From a virus, in UHGV virus genome UHGV-0008299: a DNA stretch of 20,928 bases, one strand, 5' to 3'. Within the stretch, counting starts at the first letter, position 1; every line of letters starts with the position of its first letter. A model generated the notes under the pieces. The model was not told the origin of the DNA. It worked only from the letters and a program-made list of their open reading frames with translations, and did not search any database. A program made the position numbers and the translations under genes. This document shows, one piece after another, positions 1,148 to 20,928 of the stretch.

Positions 1148-2559
1148 CCTCGATTAATCCTATCTTTGAACCGTTCATTGAGGCGCATCGCTACAAAGTC
1201 GCCAAAGGCGGGCGAGGTAGCGGTAAGTCATGGGCAATTGCTAGGCTGCTTGTTGAAGCGGCGCGTCGTCAGCCAGTGCGTATTCTCTGCGCTCGTGAAC
1301 TGCAAAACAGTATCAGCGATTCGGTAATCCGGTTGCTTGAAGACACCATCGAGCGGGAAGGGTATTCGGCTGAGTTTGAAATTCAGCGTTCAATGATTCG
1401 TCATCTCGGAACGAATGCTGAATTCATGTTCTACGGCATCAAAAACAACCCGACGAAGATTAAATCGCTCGAAGGTATTGATATCTGCTGGGTGGAGGAA
1501 GCGGAAGCGGTAACGAAGGAATCATGGGATATTCTGATACCAACCATCCGCAAGCCGTTTTCCGAAATATGGGTGAGCTTCAACCCTAAGAACATCCTCG
1601 ACGATACCTATCAGCGATTCGTTGTAAATCCTCCAGATGATATTTGCCTGCTGACGGTGAACTACACCGACAACCCGCACTTTCCAGAAGTTCTCCGTCT
1701 GGAGATGGAAGAGTGTAAACGCAGAAATCCGACACTGTATCGTCACATCTGGCTTGGTGAGCCGGTAAGCGCAAGTGATATGGCAATCATCAAACGTGAA
1801 TGGCTTGAAGCCGCAACCGATGCGCACAAGAAACTCGGATGGAAAGCGAAAGGCGCGGTTGTTTCTGCTCATGACCCGTCAGATACAGGGCCAGATGCTA
1901 AAGGTTATGCATCGCGTCACGGTTCGGTGGTTAAGCGCATTGCCGAAGGTCTGCTGATGGACATTAACGAGGGTGCTGACTGGGCTACTTCGCTGGCGAT
2001 TGAAGACGGCGCTGACCATTACCTGTGGGATGGTGATGGTGTTGGTGCCGGGCTACGCAGACAGACAACGGAAGCGTTCTCCGGTAAGAAAATCACCGCC
2101 ACGATGTTTAAGGGTAGTGAATCGCCATTCGATGAAGATGCGCCTTATCAGGCCGGAGCATGGGCTGATGAAGTCGTACAGGGCGACAACGTTCGCACTG
2201 TTGGCGATGTGTTCCGCAATAAGCGAGCGCAATTCTATTACGCGCTGGCTGACAGGCTGTATCTGACATATCGGGCTGTTGTCCACGGTGAGTATGCAGA
2301 CCCCGACGACATGCTGAGTTTCGACAAAGAAGCGATAGGCGAGAAGATGCTGGAGAAGCTGTTTGCAGAACTGACGCAGATTCAGCGCAAATTCAATAAT
2401 AACGGGAAGCTGGAGCTTATGACTAAGGTCGAAATGAAGCAGAAGCTCGGTATTCCATCTCCTAACCTGGCTGATGCGCTGATGATGTGTATGCATTGCC
2501 CGGAGTCGGCTGCGCAACCCGACTATTACAGTTACTCAATTCCTTGTGGTGTAGGTTGA
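1144..2559 (+). CDS. Terminase large subunit (ATPase/nuclease)
   Basis: 471 aa. Walker A motif GGRGSGKS near the N-terminus; size and position match the Sf6/CUS-3-type large terminase. Start overlaps the small-subunit stop. Confidence 0.92.
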   Translation: MTSINPIFEPFIEAHRYKVAKGGRGSGKSWAIARLLVEAARRQPVRILCARELQNSISDSVIRLLEDTIEREGYSAEFEIQRSMIRHLGTNAEFMFYGIKNNPTKIKSLEGIDICWVEEAEAVTKESWDILIPTIRKPFSEIWVSFNPKNILDDTYQRFVVNPPDDICLLTVNYTDNPHFPEVLRLEMEECKRRNPTLYRHIWLGEPVSASDMAIIKREWLEAATDAHKKLGWKAKGAVVSAHDPSDTGPDAKGYASRHGSVVKRIAEGLLMDINEGADWATSLAIEDGADHYLWDGDGVGAGLRRQTTEAFSGKKITATMFKGSESPFDEDAPYQAGAWADEVVQGDNVRTVGDVFRNKRAQFYYALADRLYLTYRAVVHGEYADPDDMLSFDKEAIGEKMLEKLFAELTQIQRKFNNNGKLELMTKVEMKQKLGIPSPNLADALMMCMHCPESAAQPDYYSYSIPCGVG

Positions 2560-11482: not shown

Positions 11483-12898
11483 ATGGCTACGTGGCAACAG
11501 GGTATTAATTCTGGTGGTTTTCTGGCTGGCATCGGTACGCAAAATGAGAATGCGCCAAAGGCAAGCGACATTAACGCAACGCTTGGTCTGATCCGCGAAA
11601 ACAATGAACTGGCTCGCTCAGGTGCAAATAACGTTGGCCTGACCGCGTTACGTGGTCTGGCTGGAGTTGCTGATATTTACAATCAGGAACAGCAACAGAA
11701 AGCTATTAGTGCGTTCAATAAGGTTCACGCTGATGCATGGGCTTCTGGTGATCCATCGGGACTATTTAAGTTTGCCCAGGAAAATCCAGCGTTTGTTGCA
11801 CAGGCACAACAGGCGTTTTCCGGTCTTAATGATCAGCAACGCAACGATATGGGCGATTTAGCCATGAGGGCTAACGTCGCTCTTTCTCAGGGGCCGGAAG
11901 CCTACAGTAAATTCATTACTGACAACAAGGACAGGTTAAATCGCGTTGGTGCTAATGCTGACTGGATGATTCAGACAGGTATCCAGAATCCAGAGCAGCT
12001 ATCACACATGCTGACTACTATGTCTCTCGGTGCGCTTGGACCAGAAAAGGCGTTTGCTGTTCAGGATAAGATGGCTGGTCGTGAAATTGACCGAGGCAGG
12101 CTGGCAGAGACAATCCGCAGCAATCAGGCTGGTGAAGCACTTCAGGCGAGAGGGCAAAACCTTTCCTATCAGTCAGCAATGACTGGGCACAATATCGCAG
12201 CACAACGCTTGGCTCTGGATCAGCAAGAGTTCGGGTTTAAGATGCAGCAAGCGCAGGAAAAGGCTCAGCAGTTGATTAGCGAAGCACCTAAGCTGTCAGT
12301 AAACATGGAAAAAGGAATCGAGACGGCTGTAAACAATGCCACAGCATCATCAAACTCAGCCAATTCCATGAGTGCGCTTGCTCAACAGTTCAGAGCAGAA
12401 AAACCAACGACAGGTTTGTTCGGTAACGCACAGAACATGTTCGCAAAACTTACCGGAAGCGATACGACATTGCGTGATTTGCGCATTCGCCAAAATGCCC
12501 TTGTTAACAGTCAGGTTCTTAAATTCCTACCTCCCGGCCCAGCAACGGATAAAGACGTTGAGATCGTTAGACAGGGTGCGCCAACTGACATGGATAACCC
12601 TGAGACGGTCGCAAGATGGCTTGATGCAATGGCAAACCTTGAGCGACGAAACGCGCAGTTTAATGAGTTTAAAGCCGAGTGGATGAGCGCGAATGGCAAC
12701 CCTGGACAATCGCGTAATGGCGGTCAGATATTGGGGTTGGATGTTAAAAAAGGTGAATCATTGGGGAGTGCCGTTAAGCGGTATATGTCAATGAATACTG
12801 ACGCAGCGCCAGCACAAGATTCGACACCTTCAGGAGAACCACGGAGTCAGGTTGGATCATATACCTCAAAATCAGGCATTCAATTTACGGTGGAATGA
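11483..12898 (+). CDS. Ejection protein, P22 gp20-like
   Basis: 471 aa, the same size and position as P22 gp20. Confidence 0.7.
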
Positions 12899-14901
12899 TG
12901 AAAGTAACTGCAAACGGTAAGACATTTACCTTTCCTGATGGTACGAGCACCGAAGATATTGGCACCGCCATTGATGAGTATTTTGCTGGTCAGTCAGCAC
13001 CAACACAACAAGGTGTTCAGCAATCGCCAGCAGACAACTCACTTGCATCAGGATATGCACAGCTTGCCACTCAGCAGAAGGAAGGACTAGATCGCTCTGC
13101 TGAGCAAGGGGCTGTTTTAGGTGCTGCAATGCGCGATGCCGTTACCGGTGAAAGCCGAATGACACCAGAAATGGAGAGACTGCAAAATGTTGGGTCTGCT
13201 CCAGAGCTTAATAGCTTAAGCACTGATGCGCTGCGTGCTGGATTGGGGCAGCTATTTGGTTCCGACGCTTCACAGGAGAAAATACTGCAAAGTATTGGCG
13301 GGAAAATCCGGAAGGATGAGAAGGGAAATTCCATAGTCACCCTTCCTTCAGGGGAATATGCACTTAACAAGCCTGGTTTGTCACCGCAGGATATAACGTC
13401 ATTCTTGGCAAATGCTCTTGCATTCACTCCAGCAGGTAGAGCTGCGTCTGTTGTAGGTGCAACACTAAAATCAGGCGCTACTGATTTAGCTTTACAGGGT
13501 GCCACTAAGATCGCTGGCGGTGAGAATGTTAATCCAGTTCAAACTGCAATTTCTGCTGGTCTTGGTGGGGTACTAAAGGGTGTAGAAAACACCGCAAGCG
13601 CAGTGTCTCGTTCTGCTATGGGTAAGATTGCTCCTGAAAAACAAGCTCAGATTGACTTTGCCAAGCAGAACAACTTGCCACTGATGACAACAGATCTTGT
13701 GGAACCGGGAACAAATATTGGTAAGCAAGCACGAGCTATGGCTGAGCGAATCCCAATAGCCGGAACAGGTGGGATAAGAAATGCACAGCAAAAGGCCAGG
13801 GAAGATTTAGTTAGAACATTTAGCGATAATGTTGGTGGAATATCTGACGCACAACTTTACCAATCAGCTACTCGTGGTCAGCAGCAATTTATTCAGGCTG
13901 CTGGCAAGCGGTACGACAGGATCATCAGTTTGATGGGGGATACTCCTGTTGACATCACTGGAACAGTGAAAGCAATTGATGAGCAGATTTCCAAGTTAAC
14001 TCGCCCAGGAGTATCGCAAGACCGCTCAGCTGTTTCTGTCCTTCAACAGTTTAGAAATGACATCACCAGCGGTCCAAATAACCTGCAATTAGCTAGAGAA
14101 AACCGTACAAACTTACGTAAGCGCTTTATGGCAGCACCTGACGAGGTCGATAGAGATACGCTGGAGAAAGCTGCGCAGTCTGTTTATAACGCATACACAA
14201 CAGACATGAAAAAAGCGGTTGGCGCAAAACTAGGTGCGAAGGAAGCGCAAAACATGTCGCGTGTTGATCGTTCTTGGGCAAAGTTCAACGACATGATGAG
14301 CAATACACGTGTCCAAAAAGCTATTCAGAGTGGTAAAACAACGCCAGAAGATGTCACTAAACTAGTATTCAGCCAAAGCCCAGCGGAAAGGGCGCAACTT
14401 TATCGATTGCTTGATGATAGTGGGCGTCAAAATGCTAGAGCAGCACTTGTTCAGCGTGCAATGGATAAGGCGACAAGCGATTCAGGAAAGCTTAGCGTTG
14501 AGAAGTTTATTAATGAAATGAAAAGGAATCGGAAGCAGGCTGAGACGTTCTTCAGAGGAGAGCATGGGAAACAGCTTGATGGGATAATGAAATATCTTGA
14601 TTCCACTAGACAGGCAGCTACTGCTGCCGCAAGCCCACTAACAGGGCAAATGGTAGCTGGTCCAGCAGCGCTGATAACAGCTCTTGCGTCTGTTACAAAT
14701 CCAATGTTTGCAAAAGTTGCGGCAGTTGGAGCTGGTATCGGTATGGCTGGCAGGGGCTATGAGTCACGCGCGATGAGGAACGCATTACTAAAGTTAGCAA
14801 ACACGCCAAAAGGAAGTACTGCTTATGATAGAGCGATCAGACGGGTATCTGAAACTCTTACACCTCTAATTCAGGCTTCAAGTGAGCAAGCCCAGCAGTA
14901 A
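12895..14901 (+). CDS. Ejection protein, P22 gp16-like
   Basis: 668 aa. Last gene of the rightward structural operon before the immI region, in the position of P22 gp16. Start overlaps the upstream stop (ATGA). Confidence 0.7.
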
Positions 14902-14909
14902 AAAGTTGG

Positions 14910-15230
14910 TTAGCGGTTGATGGTTGCTTTTTTCGGGTCATACCATCTCGGCCATTCTTTCAGGAATGGGAATGAGTCGGGAGCGTGGTTCTTTTTGTAC
15001 GATTTAAGCAGCCTTAACCGCTCAATCGCACACTCATAAACCTCTTGTTGCCCTGTAGTCATCTCGGTCCATGAAAGGTGATCCATTGATAAGACAACGT
15101 TTTCAGCTTCTTTTATGAGGGCGTTTTTATTTCTCACCGCAGCAGCATGGCTGACAGAGCAATCCTGCCATATTCTTAAAAGCCAAATAGCTAAGCAGAT
15201 GAAAAAAATGGTAGAGAGCGATATGTACAT
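14910..15230 (-). CDS. Hypothetical small membrane-anchored protein (immI cargo)
   Basis: 106 aa with ATG start. Strong Shine-Dalgarno (AAGGAG, reverse complement of 15238-15243) about 7 nt upstream. N-terminal hydrophobic helix ISLSTIFFICLAIWLLRIW. AT-rich. Confidence 0.5.
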   Translation of the reverse strand: MYISLSTIFFICLAIWLLRIWQDCSVSHAAAVRNKNALIKEAENVVLSMDHLSWTEMTTGQQEVYECAIERLRLLKSYKKNHAPDSFPFLKEWPRWYDPKKATINR

Positions 15231-15310
15231 GCCGATCTCCTTAGATTTATCAATGCTGCATGATTTTCAACAGACATCAATCATGCAGCTATAGGTAATA
15301 AATCAAGAAA

Positions 15311-15820
15311 CTATTGAGAACGTTTGTCTTTTTGAGACTCTAATATAGCCAATACCTTATAAAGAGATTGGTTTGTTGAGTCTAATTTTTGATCAGTGTT
15401 ATCAATCCTTGACTGTAATACTGATTGGTTGTTTTGGATAGTAGCCATTATCTCTGCCTTACTGGTTTGGATGTTTCCTGTTAGCTCTTGTCGTGATGAT
15501 TCAACTTTATCATCTATAGTGCCTCGAATCGTCCATGTGGCGGCAACGATAGAACCAATGATAGCAACTGCAACCCCGTATAGCTCTAAACGTTTCACGG
15601 TATCACGACCTTCTTCTTTGTGTTGCTCTTCTTGTAGGCTAAATATTTGTGGTTCCTTTGACGGATTTCTGTCAGTTGGTCTGTAATACTCTGAATATTT
15701 AGCGTTTTCTATTGAACTCCATAACGATTTGTCAAAGTCAAGGTTTTCATGTTGGCTTTGAGCATCTCCATAAATACTAGGTGATTTATTGTGAACATGT
15801 TGGTCAAACATTATCTCCAT
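15311..15820 (-). CDS. Hypothetical single-pass membrane protein with coiled-coil C-terminus (immI cargo)
   Basis: The track ORF starts at GTG 15823; the first ATG is at 15820. One central hydrophobic helix (LYGVAVAIIGSIVAATWTI) followed by a Gln/Ser/Asp-rich heptad-like region. Overlaps the upstream zinc-ribbon ORF by about 17-20 nt. AT-rich. Confidence 0.55.
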   Translation of the reverse strand: MEIMFDQHVHNKSPSIYGDAQSQHENLDFDKSLWSSIENAKYSEYYRPTDRNPSKEPQIFSLQEEQHKEEGRDTVKRLELYGVAVAIIGSIVAATWTIRGTIDDKVESSRQELTGNIQTSKAEIMATIQNNQSVLQSRIDNTDQKLDSTNQSLYKVLAILESQKDKRSQ

Positions 15821-16151
15821 CACCCTTTACGAATTTTCCAGAAGAGATATTTTCACTAACTTTGTTTAAACTAAAAAAGTGGAAGAAACCGCAAGTGGTG
15901 CATTGCATGGCTACCATGTTAAGACTATCGTTGCTATAAGTATCTTGATTAACAGGATTATTAGGCAAGCTTTTACCTGGTATGGATGGGCCTATAACTT
16001 CAACACCATCATCTTTTTTAAGATGCTCAGGTGCTAAAAGAGTCCAGTTTGTATTGCTGCATATTGGGCATACATAAGTTTTTTTGAATGAAGTCAAGTA
16101 ATTACTAAAAGACTCAAAAGTAACTTTTAAGTATTGCTCCTTACTGCTCAT
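15804..16151 (-). CDS. Hypothetical zinc-ribbon protein (two CxxC pairs), immI cargo
   Basis: 115 aa with CPIC and CTTC motifs about 55 residues apart. Its ATG overlaps the mnt stop (TAATG on the minus strand). gagg Shine-Dalgarno 6 nt upstream. AT-rich. Confidence 0.55.
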   Translation of the reverse strand: MSSKEQYLKVTFESFSNYLTSFKKTYVCPICSNTNWTLLAPEHLKKDDGVEVIGPSIPGKSLPNNPVNQDTYSNDSLNMVAMQCTTCGFFHFFSLNKVSENISSGKFVKGDGDNV

Positions 16152-16390
16152 TATTGGCCTCGAATCTTCTTAAGTACGCTAATTGCAATATCCATTGCTT
16201 CCTTCTCTGTTTTTGTGAGATCTTGAGATGTCGATGGTATGACCTTTTCTCTGTTAATCTTAATCCATAGCTGTATTGCAGCTATGATTTCAGCATTGAT
16301 AGAGCGCCTGTTTGTTGCCGCAATGTGAGTAAGCTGCTGCTTGATTTCACTTGGCATTCTTACGTTAAATTGTGGATCGTTTCTAGCCAC
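16151..16390 (-). CDS. mnt: Mnt repressor (ribbon-helix-helix)
   Basis: N-terminus MARNDPQFNVRMPSEIKQQLTHIAATNRRSINAEI parallels P22 Mnt (MARDDPHFNFRMP...NGRSMNSEL). GTG start with GGAGAG Shine-Dalgarno 4 nt upstream. Divergent from arc. Confidence 0.85.
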   Translation of the reverse strand: MARNDPQFNVRMPSEIKQQLTHIAATNRRSINAEIIAAIQLWIKINREKVIPSTSQDLTKTEKEAMDIAISVLKKIRGQ

Positions 16391-16483
16391 GTCGCTCTCC
16401 TGTTATTTGTTGACATGCTAGAACGGTAGTAGTACGCTTTCAATAGTAGTACGGTGCTATCATTTAATGGAATGGAGTGGAAT
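16391..16483. promoter_or_regulatory. Divergent mnt/arc control region (Pant and Pmnt candidates with repeated operator-like elements)
   Basis: Plus strand: -35 TTGACA at 16410-16415 and a weak -10 TACGCT at 16433-16438. Minus strand: -35 TTGAAA (reverse complement of 16438-16443) and -10 TAGCAT (reverse complement of 16415-16420), 17-bp spacer. Direct repeat TAGTAGTACG at 16427-16436 and 16444-16453. Confidence 0.5.
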
Positions 16484-16645
16484 ATGCAAGGCGCAAGAAA
16501 AATGCCGCAGTTCAATTTGCGGTGGCCTAAAGAAGTATTGGATTTGGTACGCAAGGTGGCGGAAGAGAATGGTCGGTCTGTTAACTCTGAGATTTATCAG
16601 AGAGTAATGGACAGCTTTAAGAAGGAAGGGCGCATTGGCGCGTAA
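16484..16645 (+). CDS. arc: Arc repressor (ribbon-helix-helix)
   Basis: [53 protein letters not shown] is near-identical to P22 Arc as I recall it. The track ORF starts further upstream at 16454, but ATG 16484 with ggagtgg upstream gives the canonical Arc length. Confidence 0.88.
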
Positions 16646-16725
16646 AGTTGAAGCCCCAACTACGGGAACAGTCAGGGCTTCGGTTGTCGGTAAATTCGTG
16701 GAGAAAAACCAACATGAATAGTATA
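16646..16725 (-). ncRNA. sar: sar-like antisense RNA candidate (promoter plus transcript)
   Basis: Minus-strand -10 TATACT (reverse complement of 16720-16725) just inside ant. Transcription from about 16712 would run about 68 nt through the ant ribosome-binding site to a hairpin (GAAGCCC/GGGCTTC, 16650-16681) followed by CUUUA. P22 has a 68-69 nt sar RNA at this position. Confidence 0.4.
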
Positions 16726-17649
16726 GCAATTTTAGAAGCAGTGAACACCTCTTACGTGCCTTTCAATGGTCAGCAGATTTTAACCGCTGTGGCTGCCGGA
16801 GTGACTTATGTAGCGATGCGTCAAATTGTGGAAAACATTGGTATCGACTGGACTGGTCAATCTGTTAAGTTGCGTAAAATGAAGGACAAATTCAACTGTA
16901 GAGATATCTCTATGGTTGCTGCTGATGGCAAGTTACGTAAGCTTTTATGCATCCCGCTGAAGAAGTTAAATGGATGGCTGTTCAGCATCAACCCTGAGAA
17001 AGTTCGTGCTGACATCCGTGATAAACTGATTCAGTACCAGGAAGAATGCTTTAGCGTGCTGCATGACTACTGGACTAAAGGTCATGTAGTTAACCCACGC
17101 AAAGCTAAAAAGGCGTTGCCGGGTAAAATCACCACTGAACAGCAGGAAGCCATTAAACAACTCGTCATGAGTCGCGGTCAGTCTCTGCCAAAAGAAAAAC
17201 AGGCTAAGGCGATGATCACCATGTGGTCGTCACTGAAATCCCATTTTGGATGTTCGTACAAAGAAATCAGTGAGGAGCAGTTTACCGAAGCACTATCACT
17301 TGCAGCTCGAGTTCCACTTGAAGGTGAGTTCATTGGCAAACAAGAGAAGAAAACCAACGAGCTTTCTGCAAAAGAAGCAAACAGCCTTGTATGGTTATGG
17401 GATTATGCTAACCGCTCACAGGCATTATTCCGCGAACTGTATCCGGCATTAAAACAAATTCAATCGAACTATTCCGGCAGATGCTACGACTACGGTCATG
17501 AATTCTCGTATGTTATCGGAATGGCGAGAGACGTTTTAATCAATCACACACGCGATGTTGATATCAATGAGCCAGACGGACCAACGAATCTTTCCGCATG
17601 GATGAGACTTAAGAATAAAGAATTACCTCCTTCAGTACATAACTACTGA
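16714..17649 (+). CDS. ant: Antirepressor Ant
   Basis: The track ORF starts at TTG 16648; the first ATG is at 16714 ([21 protein letters not shown]...), with ggag at 16700-16703. Position after arc, about 310 aa, as for P22 Ant. Confidence 0.8.
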
Positions 17650-17668
17650 CAGATAACCAACGCGACAA

Positions 17669-17691
17669 CCCAGCTTCGGCTGGGTTTTTTT
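17669..17691 (+). terminator. Rho-independent terminator after ant
   Basis: cccagc-ttcg-gctggg 6-bp stem with a 4-nt loop, followed by a 7-T run. Confidence 0.7.
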
Positions 17692-17749
17692 ATGCCCAAA
17701 ATTCACCGTAGCCATGCTGCGGCGATTCCTTGTATCTGGAGCAAATTAA

Positions 17750-20695
17750 ATGACAGACATTACAGCCAATGTGATCGTATCGATGCCTTCGCAACTCTTC
17801 ACTATGGCGCGTTCTTTTAAAGCCGTAGCCAATGGTAAAATTTATATCGGTAAAATTGACACTGACCCGGTAAACCCTGAAAACCAGATTCAGGTTTATG
17901 TGGAGAACGAAGACGGCTCTCACGTTCCTGTTTCGCAACCAATCATCATTAACGCCGCTGGTTATCCTGTATATAACGGACAGATTGCCAAATTCGTAAC
18001 TGAGCAAGGCCATTCTATGGCTGTTTATGATGCGTATGGTGCACAGCAGTTCTATTTTCCTAATGTGCTGAAGTATGATCCTGATCAGCTACGGCAGCAA
18101 TTAGAAGACCCAGATGGAGCGGATAAATACCCAAAACTTCAGATAGCAAGATGGAGAGACAGTTATGATCTAAGAGGTTGGGGGGCTATTGGTGATGGTG
18201 TTCATGATGACACATCAGCTCTATCAGAATTACTTTCTGTTGCAACAGGTGGTGAAAAGATAGATGGGCGAGGGCTTACTTTTAAAGTGTCAACTCTTCC
18301 GGATGTCAGTCGATTTAAAAATGCTCGTTTTTTATTTGAGAGAATACCGGGTCAGCCTCTTTTTTATGCTTCTGAAGATTTTATCCAGGGAGAGTTGTTT
18401 AAAATTACAGATACACCGTGGTACAACGCCTGGACGCAGGATAAAACGTTTGTATATGACAATGTCATCTATGCGCCTTTTATGGCTGGAGACCGCCATG
18501 GTGTAAATAACCTCCATGTTGCATGGGTTCGCTCAGGAGATGACGGGAAGACCTGGACAACGCCGGAATGGCTTACAGATTTACATGAAAACTATCCCAC
18601 AGTTAACTATCACTGCATGAGTATGGGGGTTGTCAGAAATCGCCTTTTTGCTGTAATTGAGACGCGGACCGTGAGCGGAAATAAACTGCAGGTTGCAGAG
18701 TTGTGGGATCGCCCAATGAGTCGCAGCCTTCGCGTTTATGGTGGTATAACGAAAGCAGCAAATCAGCAAGTCGCTTATATTCGCATTACTGATCACGGAT
18801 TATTTGCTGGTGATTTTGTCAACTTCTCAAACTCTGGTGTTACAGGTGTTACCGGGAATATGACGGTGACTACTGTTATTGATAAAAATACTTTTACAGT
18901 TACGACGCAAAATACCCAGGATGTGGATCAGAATAACGAGGGTAGATACTGGAGTTTTGGTACATCATTTCACTCGTCACCATGGAGAAAAACCCGTCTT
19001 GGAACTATTCCTTCTTTTGTTGACGGAAGCACTCCTGTTACTGAGATTCACAGTTTTGCGACGATTAGCGATAACAGTTTTGCTGTTGGCTACCATAATG
19101 GTGATATTGGGCCACGCGAGCTTGGGATACTCTATTTCTCTGATGCTTTCGGTTCTCCTGGTAGCTTTGTTCGCAGACGCATACCTGCAGAATATGAGGC
19201 GAATGCATCTGAGCCATGTGTAAAATATTATGATGGCATTCTGTATCTGACGACCAGGGGAACATTAAGTACTCAACCCGGTAGTTCATTACACAGAAGC
19301 TCTGATTTAGGTGCATCATGGAATTCTCTTCGCTTCCCAAATAATGTTCATCACTCAAACCTTCCTTTTGCCAAAGTTGGCGATGAGCTGATTATTTTTG
19401 GCAGTGAGCGCGCATTTGGTGAGTGGGAAGGAGGAGAACCTGATAACCGTTATGCAGGAAATTATCCAAGAACATTTATGACCAGAGTTAACGTCAATGA
19501 GTGGAGTCTGGATAATGTAGAGTGGGTTAATGTTACTGATCAGATTTATCAGGGCGGAATAGTTAACTCTGCGGTTGGTGTTGGTTCAGTTTGTATCAAA
19601 GACAACTGGCTGTACTACATTTTCGGTGGGGAAGACTTTCTAAACCCATGGAGCATAGGGGATAACAACAGAAAATATCCTTATGTTCACGATGGTCACC
19701 CGGCTGATTTGTATTGTTTCAGGGTAAAAATTAAACAGGAAGAATTTGTTTCAAGGGATTTTGTCTACGGAGCCACTCCTAACAGAACGCTTCCTACTTT
19801 TATGTCGACGTCAGGCGTGAGGACGGTTCCTGTACCCGTTGATTTCACAGATGATGTTGCCGTCCAGTCACTGACTGTCCATGCCGGTACATCAGGACAA
19901 GTTCGCGCGGAAGTCAAACTTGAGGGTAATTACGCCATTATTGCGAAGAAAGTACCGTCTGATGATGTTACCGCTCAGAGATTAATCGTTAGCGGCGGTG
20001 AAACAACGTCTTCAGCAGATGGTGCAATGATAACGTTGCATGGTTCCGGAAGCAGTACTCCACGTCGCGCGGTATATAACGCACTCGAACATCTTTTTGA
20101 GAACGGAGATGTTAAACCTTATCTTGATAATGTAAATGCTCTTGGTGGTCCGGGAAACAGGTTCTCGACAGTTTATCTTGGCTCCAACCCTGTAGTTACC
20201 AGTGACGGAACATTAAAGACAGAGCCGGTCTCTCCTGATGAAGCATTGCTGGATGCCTGGGGTGACGTCAGGTATATCGCTTATAAATGGCTGAACGCTG
20301 TCGCTATAAAGGGGGAAGAAGGGGCGAGGATACATCATGGTGTAATCGCGCAGCAACTTCGTGATGTTCTTATTTCTCACGGACTCATGGAAGAAGAAAG
20401 CACAACATGCCGCTATGCCTTTCTTTGTTATGACGATTATCCCGCAGTATATGATGACGTCATTACTGGCCAAAGGGAAATGCCGCTGACTGATAATGAC
20501 GGGAGCATCATTGTTGATGAGGATGATAATCCAGTGATGGTAATGGAAGACATCATTGAGCGCGTTGAAATAACGCCAGCAGGATCTAGATGGGGGGTCA
20601 GACCTGATCTCTTATTCTATATCGAGGCAGCATGGCAGCGCAGAGAAATAGAAAGAATAAAAGCTAGGTTAGACTTAATAGAAGGGAAGCACTAA
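17750..20695 (+). CDS. Tailspike: P22-type head-binding domain fused to a sialidase-like (endosialidase-type) receptor domain and C-terminal intramolecular chaperone domain
   Basis: 981 aa. The first ~115 residues ([11 protein letters not shown]...VLKYDPDQ) parallel the P22 gp9 head-binding domain. Downstream there are two Asp-box motifs (SGDDGKTW at 18533-18556, SSDLGASW at 19298-19321) and a C-terminal region with an S-x4-K motif (SDGTLK, 20201-20218) and ...[20 protein letters not shown]..., resembling the self-cleaving chaperone domain of K1 endosialidases. Confidence 0.8.
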
Positions 20696-20802
20696 ATGTT
20701 TCGTTGGTGTCAAAAATATGAACTGCTCACATAAAGAAGTAAGTACATTGGCAAAAAACATTGACGCCAACGAAATTAAATATAAAAATTTAAATGCTTT
20801 TT

Positions 20803-20832
20803 AATGACAAGAAAAGTAACTAGTGGTAAAAT
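20803..20832 (+). promoter_or_regulatory. Candidate sigma70 promoter for the downstream repeat-containing gene
   Basis: -35-like ATGACA/TGACAA at 20803-20809 and an extended -10 TGgTAAAAT at 20824-20832, followed by a tagga Shine-Dalgarno at 20837-20841, 7 nt before ATG 20849. Confidence 0.35.
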
Positions 20833-20848
20833 AACGTAGGATACTAAT

Positions 20849-20928
20849 ATGTCAAGACTCAAGACTCAAGACTCAAGACTCAAGACTCAAGACTCAAGAC
20901 TCAAGACTCAAGACTCAAGACTCAAGAC
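20849..20928 (+). CDS. neuO: Start of neuO-like phase-variable O-acetyltransferase gene (5' end only; continues beyond window)
   Basis: ATG at 20849, then in-frame AAGACTC heptanucleotide repeats encoding MSRLKTQDSRLKTQD... This matches the known 5' repeat tract of CUS-3 neuO. Only 80 nt lie in the window. Confidence 0.75.
   Translation, partial: MSRLKTQDSRLKTQDSRLKTQDSRLK
20852..20928. repeat. Heptanucleotide tandem repeat (AAGACTC)n, at least 10 perfect copies, truncated by the window edge
   Basis: Perfect 7-nt periodicity from 20854 to the window end (10 full units plus a partial). It lies within the 5' coding region of the ORF starting at 20849. Confidence 0.95.

Follow-up and report, generated by a model that had tools for sequence, protein, structure and literature searches.

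The 3′ end of the DNA analysed here, a window of 20,928 nucleotides from the virus genome UHGV-0008299, is almost certainly the 5′ end of neuO, the gene of the K1 capsule polysialic acid O-acetyltransferase, which is carried as prophage cargo and is phase-variable by the number of its repeat units. This is a contingency locus that is already known, present in its common Ser2 allele on a mosaic CUS-3-like prophage. The coordinates of the features discussed below are collected in Table 1.

Table 1. Features of the window and the basis on which each was placed
Feature	Position	Strand	Basis and remarks
HNH endonuclease ORF, 164 aa	9127–9621	+	phrog_99 (E=4e-70); flanked by gp10-like head-closure and tail-needle genes
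3′ part of ejection-protein gene and gp16-like gene	within 12082–16643		
Three ORFs of unknown function	14910–16151	−	within 12082–16643
Arc-like gene	16151–16390		within 12082–16643
Endosialidase tailspike gene, 981 aa	17750–20695	+	ORF list; PHROG tail spike phrog_1171; directly upstream of neuO
Tailspike–neuO intergenic region, 153 nt	20696–20848	+	
Shine-Dalgarno-like AGGA	20838–20841	+	direct sequence reading; spacing to ATG of 7 nt
neuO start codon ATG	20849–20851	+	direct reading; equals the start of the PGAP acyltransferase CDS in in-frame genomes, e.g. L007 2550–3326
Heptanucleotide tract (poly-psi VNTR)	20852–20928	+	direct reading, TRF, shuffles, translation, alignment with the CUS-3 repeat_region

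The heptanucleotide tract and its identity

The tract consists of TC (20852–20853), 10 perfect AAGACTC units (20854–20923) and the letters AAGAC, which reach the last base at 20928. TRF reports the whole of it as an array of period 7 with 11.0 copies, 100% matches and a score of 154, and this is the only period-7 array that TRF finds across the 20.9-kb window. Three consecutive AAGACTC units occur 8 times in the window, compared to 0 times in 100 dinucleotide-preserving shuffles. The window end cuts the tract, so that 10 full units plus 5 nt are a minimum for the unit number.

Read from the ATG, the tract codes S(RLKTQDS)n, and the translation is MSRLKTQDSRLKTQDSRLKTQDSRLK. All three forward frames through the tract are open. 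On the reverse strand, the single frame that was translated has a stop every 7 codons. The TGA comes back at intervals of 7 nt, a number that shares no factor with 3, and hence closes every reverse frame. Codon 2 of the window allele is TCA, which means that the 2 nt after the ATG match the repeat register and that the 7-nt periodicity begins directly behind the ATG.

A sequence-only reading of this DNA had described at least 10 perfect AAGACTC units after an ATG with a good Shine-Dalgarno, encoding repeated RLKTQDS heptads and running off the window, which leaves copy number and ON/OFF state unreadable here. Direct reading, TRF and translation bear out each of these points, but the offset of the units from the ATG is 2 nt and not 3 nt as had been claimed. 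The published neuO likewise has tandem AAGACTC from 2 nt past the start codon (PMC3046976).

The identity of the locus follows from its close relatives. Window 20300–20928 is 99.2% identical to phage CUS-3 (CP000711) across the full 629 nt, and the annotation of CP000711 at the matching spot reads [quoted passage not shown]. Over the 279 nt of window 20650–20928, alignment with CUS-3 shows 4 substitutions, three of them intergenic (20708, 20726 and 20767) and one in codon 2 (20852). For the same 629 bases, identity to prophages of complete E. coli genomes is 99.4%. Among 5,426 such genomes, 194 have a match, which covers at least 80% of the query in 154, is always chromosomal and is mostly at least 99% identical.

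The protein encoded by these relatives is NeuO. A locus with 18 units and the same TCA allele as the window (L007) translates to 258 aa, and residues 17–258 of this product align with crystal structure 3JQY of NeuO, with 241 of 242 positions identical (E=1e-160). The product also has a Pfam Hexapep match (E=1e-10), and the runner-up in the PDB for the NeuO body is the OatWY structure 2WLC (E=5e-31). Acetyl-CoA-dependent O-acetylation of α-2,8 polysialic acid has been established for a 99%-identical protein (PMC3046976, PMC13001214). The acetyltransferase body lies outside the window, and we therefore infer its presence in this genome from relatives. The match to the phase-variable neuO of CUS-3 that had been proposed from the letters thus stands on the identity of the repeat, the tailspike gene upstream and the NeuO product of in-frame relatives, and the published description agrees with it (PMC3046976, PMC13001214).

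The same unit is also found far from any neuO gene. An exact scan of 185,579 species genomes for (AAGACTC)x4 gives at least 120 stretches (L020–L139) from unrelated phyla, mostly outside long ORFs and beside other 7-nt repeats, and a tract of this kind could be a non-coding, STRR-like heptanucleotide repeat unrelated to translation. In the window, however, there is one array and not several scattered ones, it lies in frame directly after a Shine-Dalgarno and an ATG, and it shares 99% orthology with neuO. The other-phylum loci have no NeuO body or conserved flanks among the matches listed, and published enzyme work contradicts an absence of translation through the tract (PMC3046976). We give this possibility practically no weight.

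These stretches were also considered as neuO homologues outside E. coli and rejected, as a NeuO body is absent and the flanks are unrelated among the at least 120 matches listed. In some MAGs, e.g. Acidobacteria SZAS-13 and a Methylococcales sponge symbiont, (AAGACTC)x4 occurs several times per genome, and 835 kb of the listed stretches contain 127 other period-7 arrays with different units. The genomes with unrelated (AAGACTC)x4 appear to be generally rich in heptanucleotide tandem repeats.

Reading frame and repeat number among related loci

The sequence past the window end was approached by searching public assemblies with the exact tailspike protein. A metagenome scaffold (L018, ENA ERZ28615552) is 100% identical to window 13750–20854. 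Past the equivalent of 20854, a 100-N gap (L018 7106–7205) interrupts its tract, which then resumes with further AAGACTC units and leads into an intact body of 215 codons with KLTQ at its end. Therefore, a hexapeptide-repeat acetyltransferase body, which the sequence-only reading had named as the feature to look for downstream, is present in the nearest relatives, the scaffold and the window being the same over the 7.1 kb that lead up to the tract. A contig from a separate assembly (L019, GCA_037399725.1) is 99.9% identical to window 13750–20928, and its 16 units put the body out of frame. In addition, tblastn matches at 99.5–100% place the 215-aa body in 9 IMG/VR loci. The neuO body 3′ of the tract contains GTTTTCCGTTGATGATAATGG.

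That the window stops inside a low-complexity run could mean that the tract is an artefact of assembly at a contig end and no biological feature. Seven CUS-3-like IMG/VR contigs (L141, L142, L145, L152–L155) also stop inside the tract, and the gap in L018 lies at the same place; short-read assemblies fail here. This explanation is nevertheless extremely improbable and is dismissed, because the tract is found in closed genomes too, in the same place, with 12–39 units and flanks at least 99% identical. Assemblies break at the tract since it is real and long or heterogeneous. The IMG/VR scan as a whole gave 16 CUS-3-like contigs and 3 unrelated ones.

The complete tract can be counted in 25 loci, namely 15 complete E. 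coli genomes, the CUS-3 record, L019 and 8 IMG/VR contigs. Across these loci, the unit number n ranges from 8 to 39 between near-identical flanks, so that variation in copy number between strains is observed directly. Whenever n is a multiple of 3 (11 of 11 loci) the ORF is full, with a length of 237–307 aa that is exactly 216 + 7n/3. All 14 loci with any other n end at 35–94 aa, at stops 4 codons (…VFR*) or 19 codons beyond the tract. The rule that translation is in frame only at multiples of 3, put forward in the sequence-only reading, thus holds in all 25 of these loci. CUS-3 is recorded with 19 units (OFF), and the 21 units counted for strain MS7163 equal the published value (PMC13001214). 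The 11:14 ratio of ON to OFF is not a frequency estimate, because the genomes were partly chosen by annotation. An unbiased published count gives 34% ON and 65.6% OFF among 64 complete genomes with 3–53 repeats, and in a single culture of strain MS7163, 93% of cells had 21 repeats, 1.9% had 20 and 5.4% had 22 (PMC13001214). The neuO tract has been described as starting 2 nt past the start codon, with 2–93 copies, and as ON only at multiples of three (PMC3046976).

There are two neuO alleles, one with TCA (Ser) at codon 2, found in 16 of the 25 loci and of the window type, and one with TTA (Leu), of which CUS-3 is the prototype. In most cases the codon-2 allele goes with a GGA/GGG difference directly 3′ of the tract, L140 being an exception, and the two neuO bodies that were compared also show an Ile/Val difference.

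The canonical GTTTTCCGTTGATG junction is present in 25 of 25 relatives with a resolved tract, and the body is intact in the 11 in-frame loci, the 9 IMG/VR loci and L018. It is thus very unlikely that a deletion, an insertion or a rearranged junction after the tract has left this genome with a neuO remnant and no functional switch, even though the window stops short of the body, neighbouring genes are interrupted by IS elements in strains Es_ST80 and MS1657, and defective copies exist, such as that of L143, an IMG/VR contig without 12 nt including the ATG. In this contig (IMG/VR 3300007747_000060, 1723–1740, minus strand), AACGTAGGA is followed directly by AAGACTC, and the missing 12 nt, which include the start codon, are TACTAATATGTC. 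Either this neuO copy is a deletion allele locked OFF or the contig is mis-assembled here.

For the window, phase-variable neuO is accordingly the reading that we retain. With all three forward frames open, ribosomes would always read through the tract, and in-frame entry into the acetyltransferase body would be set by the unit number only. When n is divisible by 3, full-length NeuO with n/3 RLKTQDS heptads at its N-terminus would be made, while with any other n, translation would end 4 or 19 codons beyond the tract. Units would be gained or lost by slipped-strand mispairing in replication, and capsule O-acetylation would thereby be switched ON and OFF in a reversible and stochastic manner. 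For slippage as the mechanism, for enzyme activity and for the phenotypes (resistance to phage and neutrophils, serum sensitivity) we rely on the literature, according to which slippage alters n mostly by one unit, the enzyme is active only at multiples of three (PMC3046976, PMC13001214) and enzyme efficiency climbs with the number of heptads (PMC3046976).

Transcription of neuO needs DsdC, which binds chiefly inside neuO and 3′ of it (PMC9659370). A promoter scan gives, in the tailspike–neuO intergenic region, two putative sigma-70-like matches (20761–20789 and 20804–20832), which are matches to the consensus only. No terminator-like site was found in the scanned region 20300–20928.

Finally, the state of the tract affects how the gene is annotated. 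In seven out-of-frame genomes (L002, L005, L006, L010, L012, L013 and L015), PGAP gives only a 111-aa “acyltransferase” fragment (WP_011478229.1) with an internal start codon. Such fragment-only calls hide phase-variable neuO in annotation. Short-read assemblies routinely break in the neuO tract, and in genomes in the OFF phase the switch is easily missed.

The surrounding prophage

The genes of the window form the late region of a P22-like prophage, with small and large terminase, portal, scaffold, coat, head-completion, tail needle and ejection proteins, Arc/Ant immI and the tailspike. Genes follow one another as in CUS-3 (P22-like late operon, ant, endosialidase tailspike, neuO), with neuO as cargo at the right end of the prophage, directly downstream of the tailspike gene; in CUS-3, neuO lies after siaK1 and before the integrase. 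A protein identical to the tailspike has the Pfam domains Head_binding, End_N_terminal, End_beta_propel, End_beta_barrel, End_tail_spike and Peptidase_S74. The tailspike–neuO module (window 16975–20928) shares 97.7% identity with CUS-3, where it spans siaK1 and the first part of neuO.

The late region as a whole is not collinear and near-identical with that of CUS-3. No more than 70–75% of the window is covered by CUS-3 or by any complete E. coli genome, at about 95% identity, and only 70% of it aligns to CUS-3, which means that the prophage is a mosaic relative of CUS-3 and not CUS-3 itself. For window 12082–16643, CUS-3 offers virtually no counterpart; the CREC7837 prophage matches part of this segment, as far as 15248. 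This divergence is typical P22-like mosaicism around immI. Moreover, segment 9126–9609, which holds most of the HNH ORF, is absent from both CUS-3 and the CREC7837 prophage, and resembles the insertion of a homing endonuclease gene into the late operon.

A wider reading, which we offer tentatively and consider possible but rather doubtful, is that the canonical neuO switch lies here in a CUS-3-like mosaic without a full-length match in the complete E. coli genomes and phage records searched, distinguished by the HNH insert and a different immI/ejection segment, and with a tract that is maybe long or heterogeneous enough to break assembly. If this were true, the prophage would be a new variant with a known contingency gene, and not a new mechanism.

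Comparison with known systems and meaning for the host

Slipped-strand contingency loci in coding regions are known from other bacteria, among them the tetranucleotide repeats of Haemophilus influenzae lic and the pentanucleotide repeats of Neisseria opa. These loci resemble neuO in that expression follows the number of units in a tandem repeat that lies close to the 5′ end of an ORF and shifts its reading frame. Compared to lic and opa, the unit of neuO is 7 nt long and is translated into a functional, length-graded N-terminal domain, and the locus is borne by a prophage.

OatWY of Neisseria meningitidis W-135/Y (PDB 2WLC) is, like NeuO, a left-handed β-helix polysialic/sialic acid O-acetyltransferase. 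However, its solved chain is without an N-terminal heptad tract, and its sequence is distant from that of NeuO.

The closest known system is neuO of CUS-3, which was originally reported by Deszo et al. 2005 (PNAS 102:5564) and King et al. 2007 (J Bacteriol 189:6447), both as cited in PMC3046976. The AAGACTC unit, its position after the ATG, the Shine-Dalgarno, the intergenic region apart from its three substitutions, the endosialidase tailspike upstream and the coding of RLKTQDS are all shared. The differences are codon 2, which is TCA (Ser) in the window and TTA (Leu) in CUS-3, and the mosaic nature of the window prophage.

The neuO finding here raises no new question, and its meaning lies in what it says about the host. 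O-acetylation of the K1 capsule by NeuO alters antigenicity, makes the cells more resistant to K1-specific phages and neutrophils, and renders them more sensitive to serum (PMC13001214, PMC9659370). Given these effects on the K1 capsule, neuO flags the host of this virus as a likely K1 extraintestinal pathogenic E. coli with a CUS-3-type prophage.
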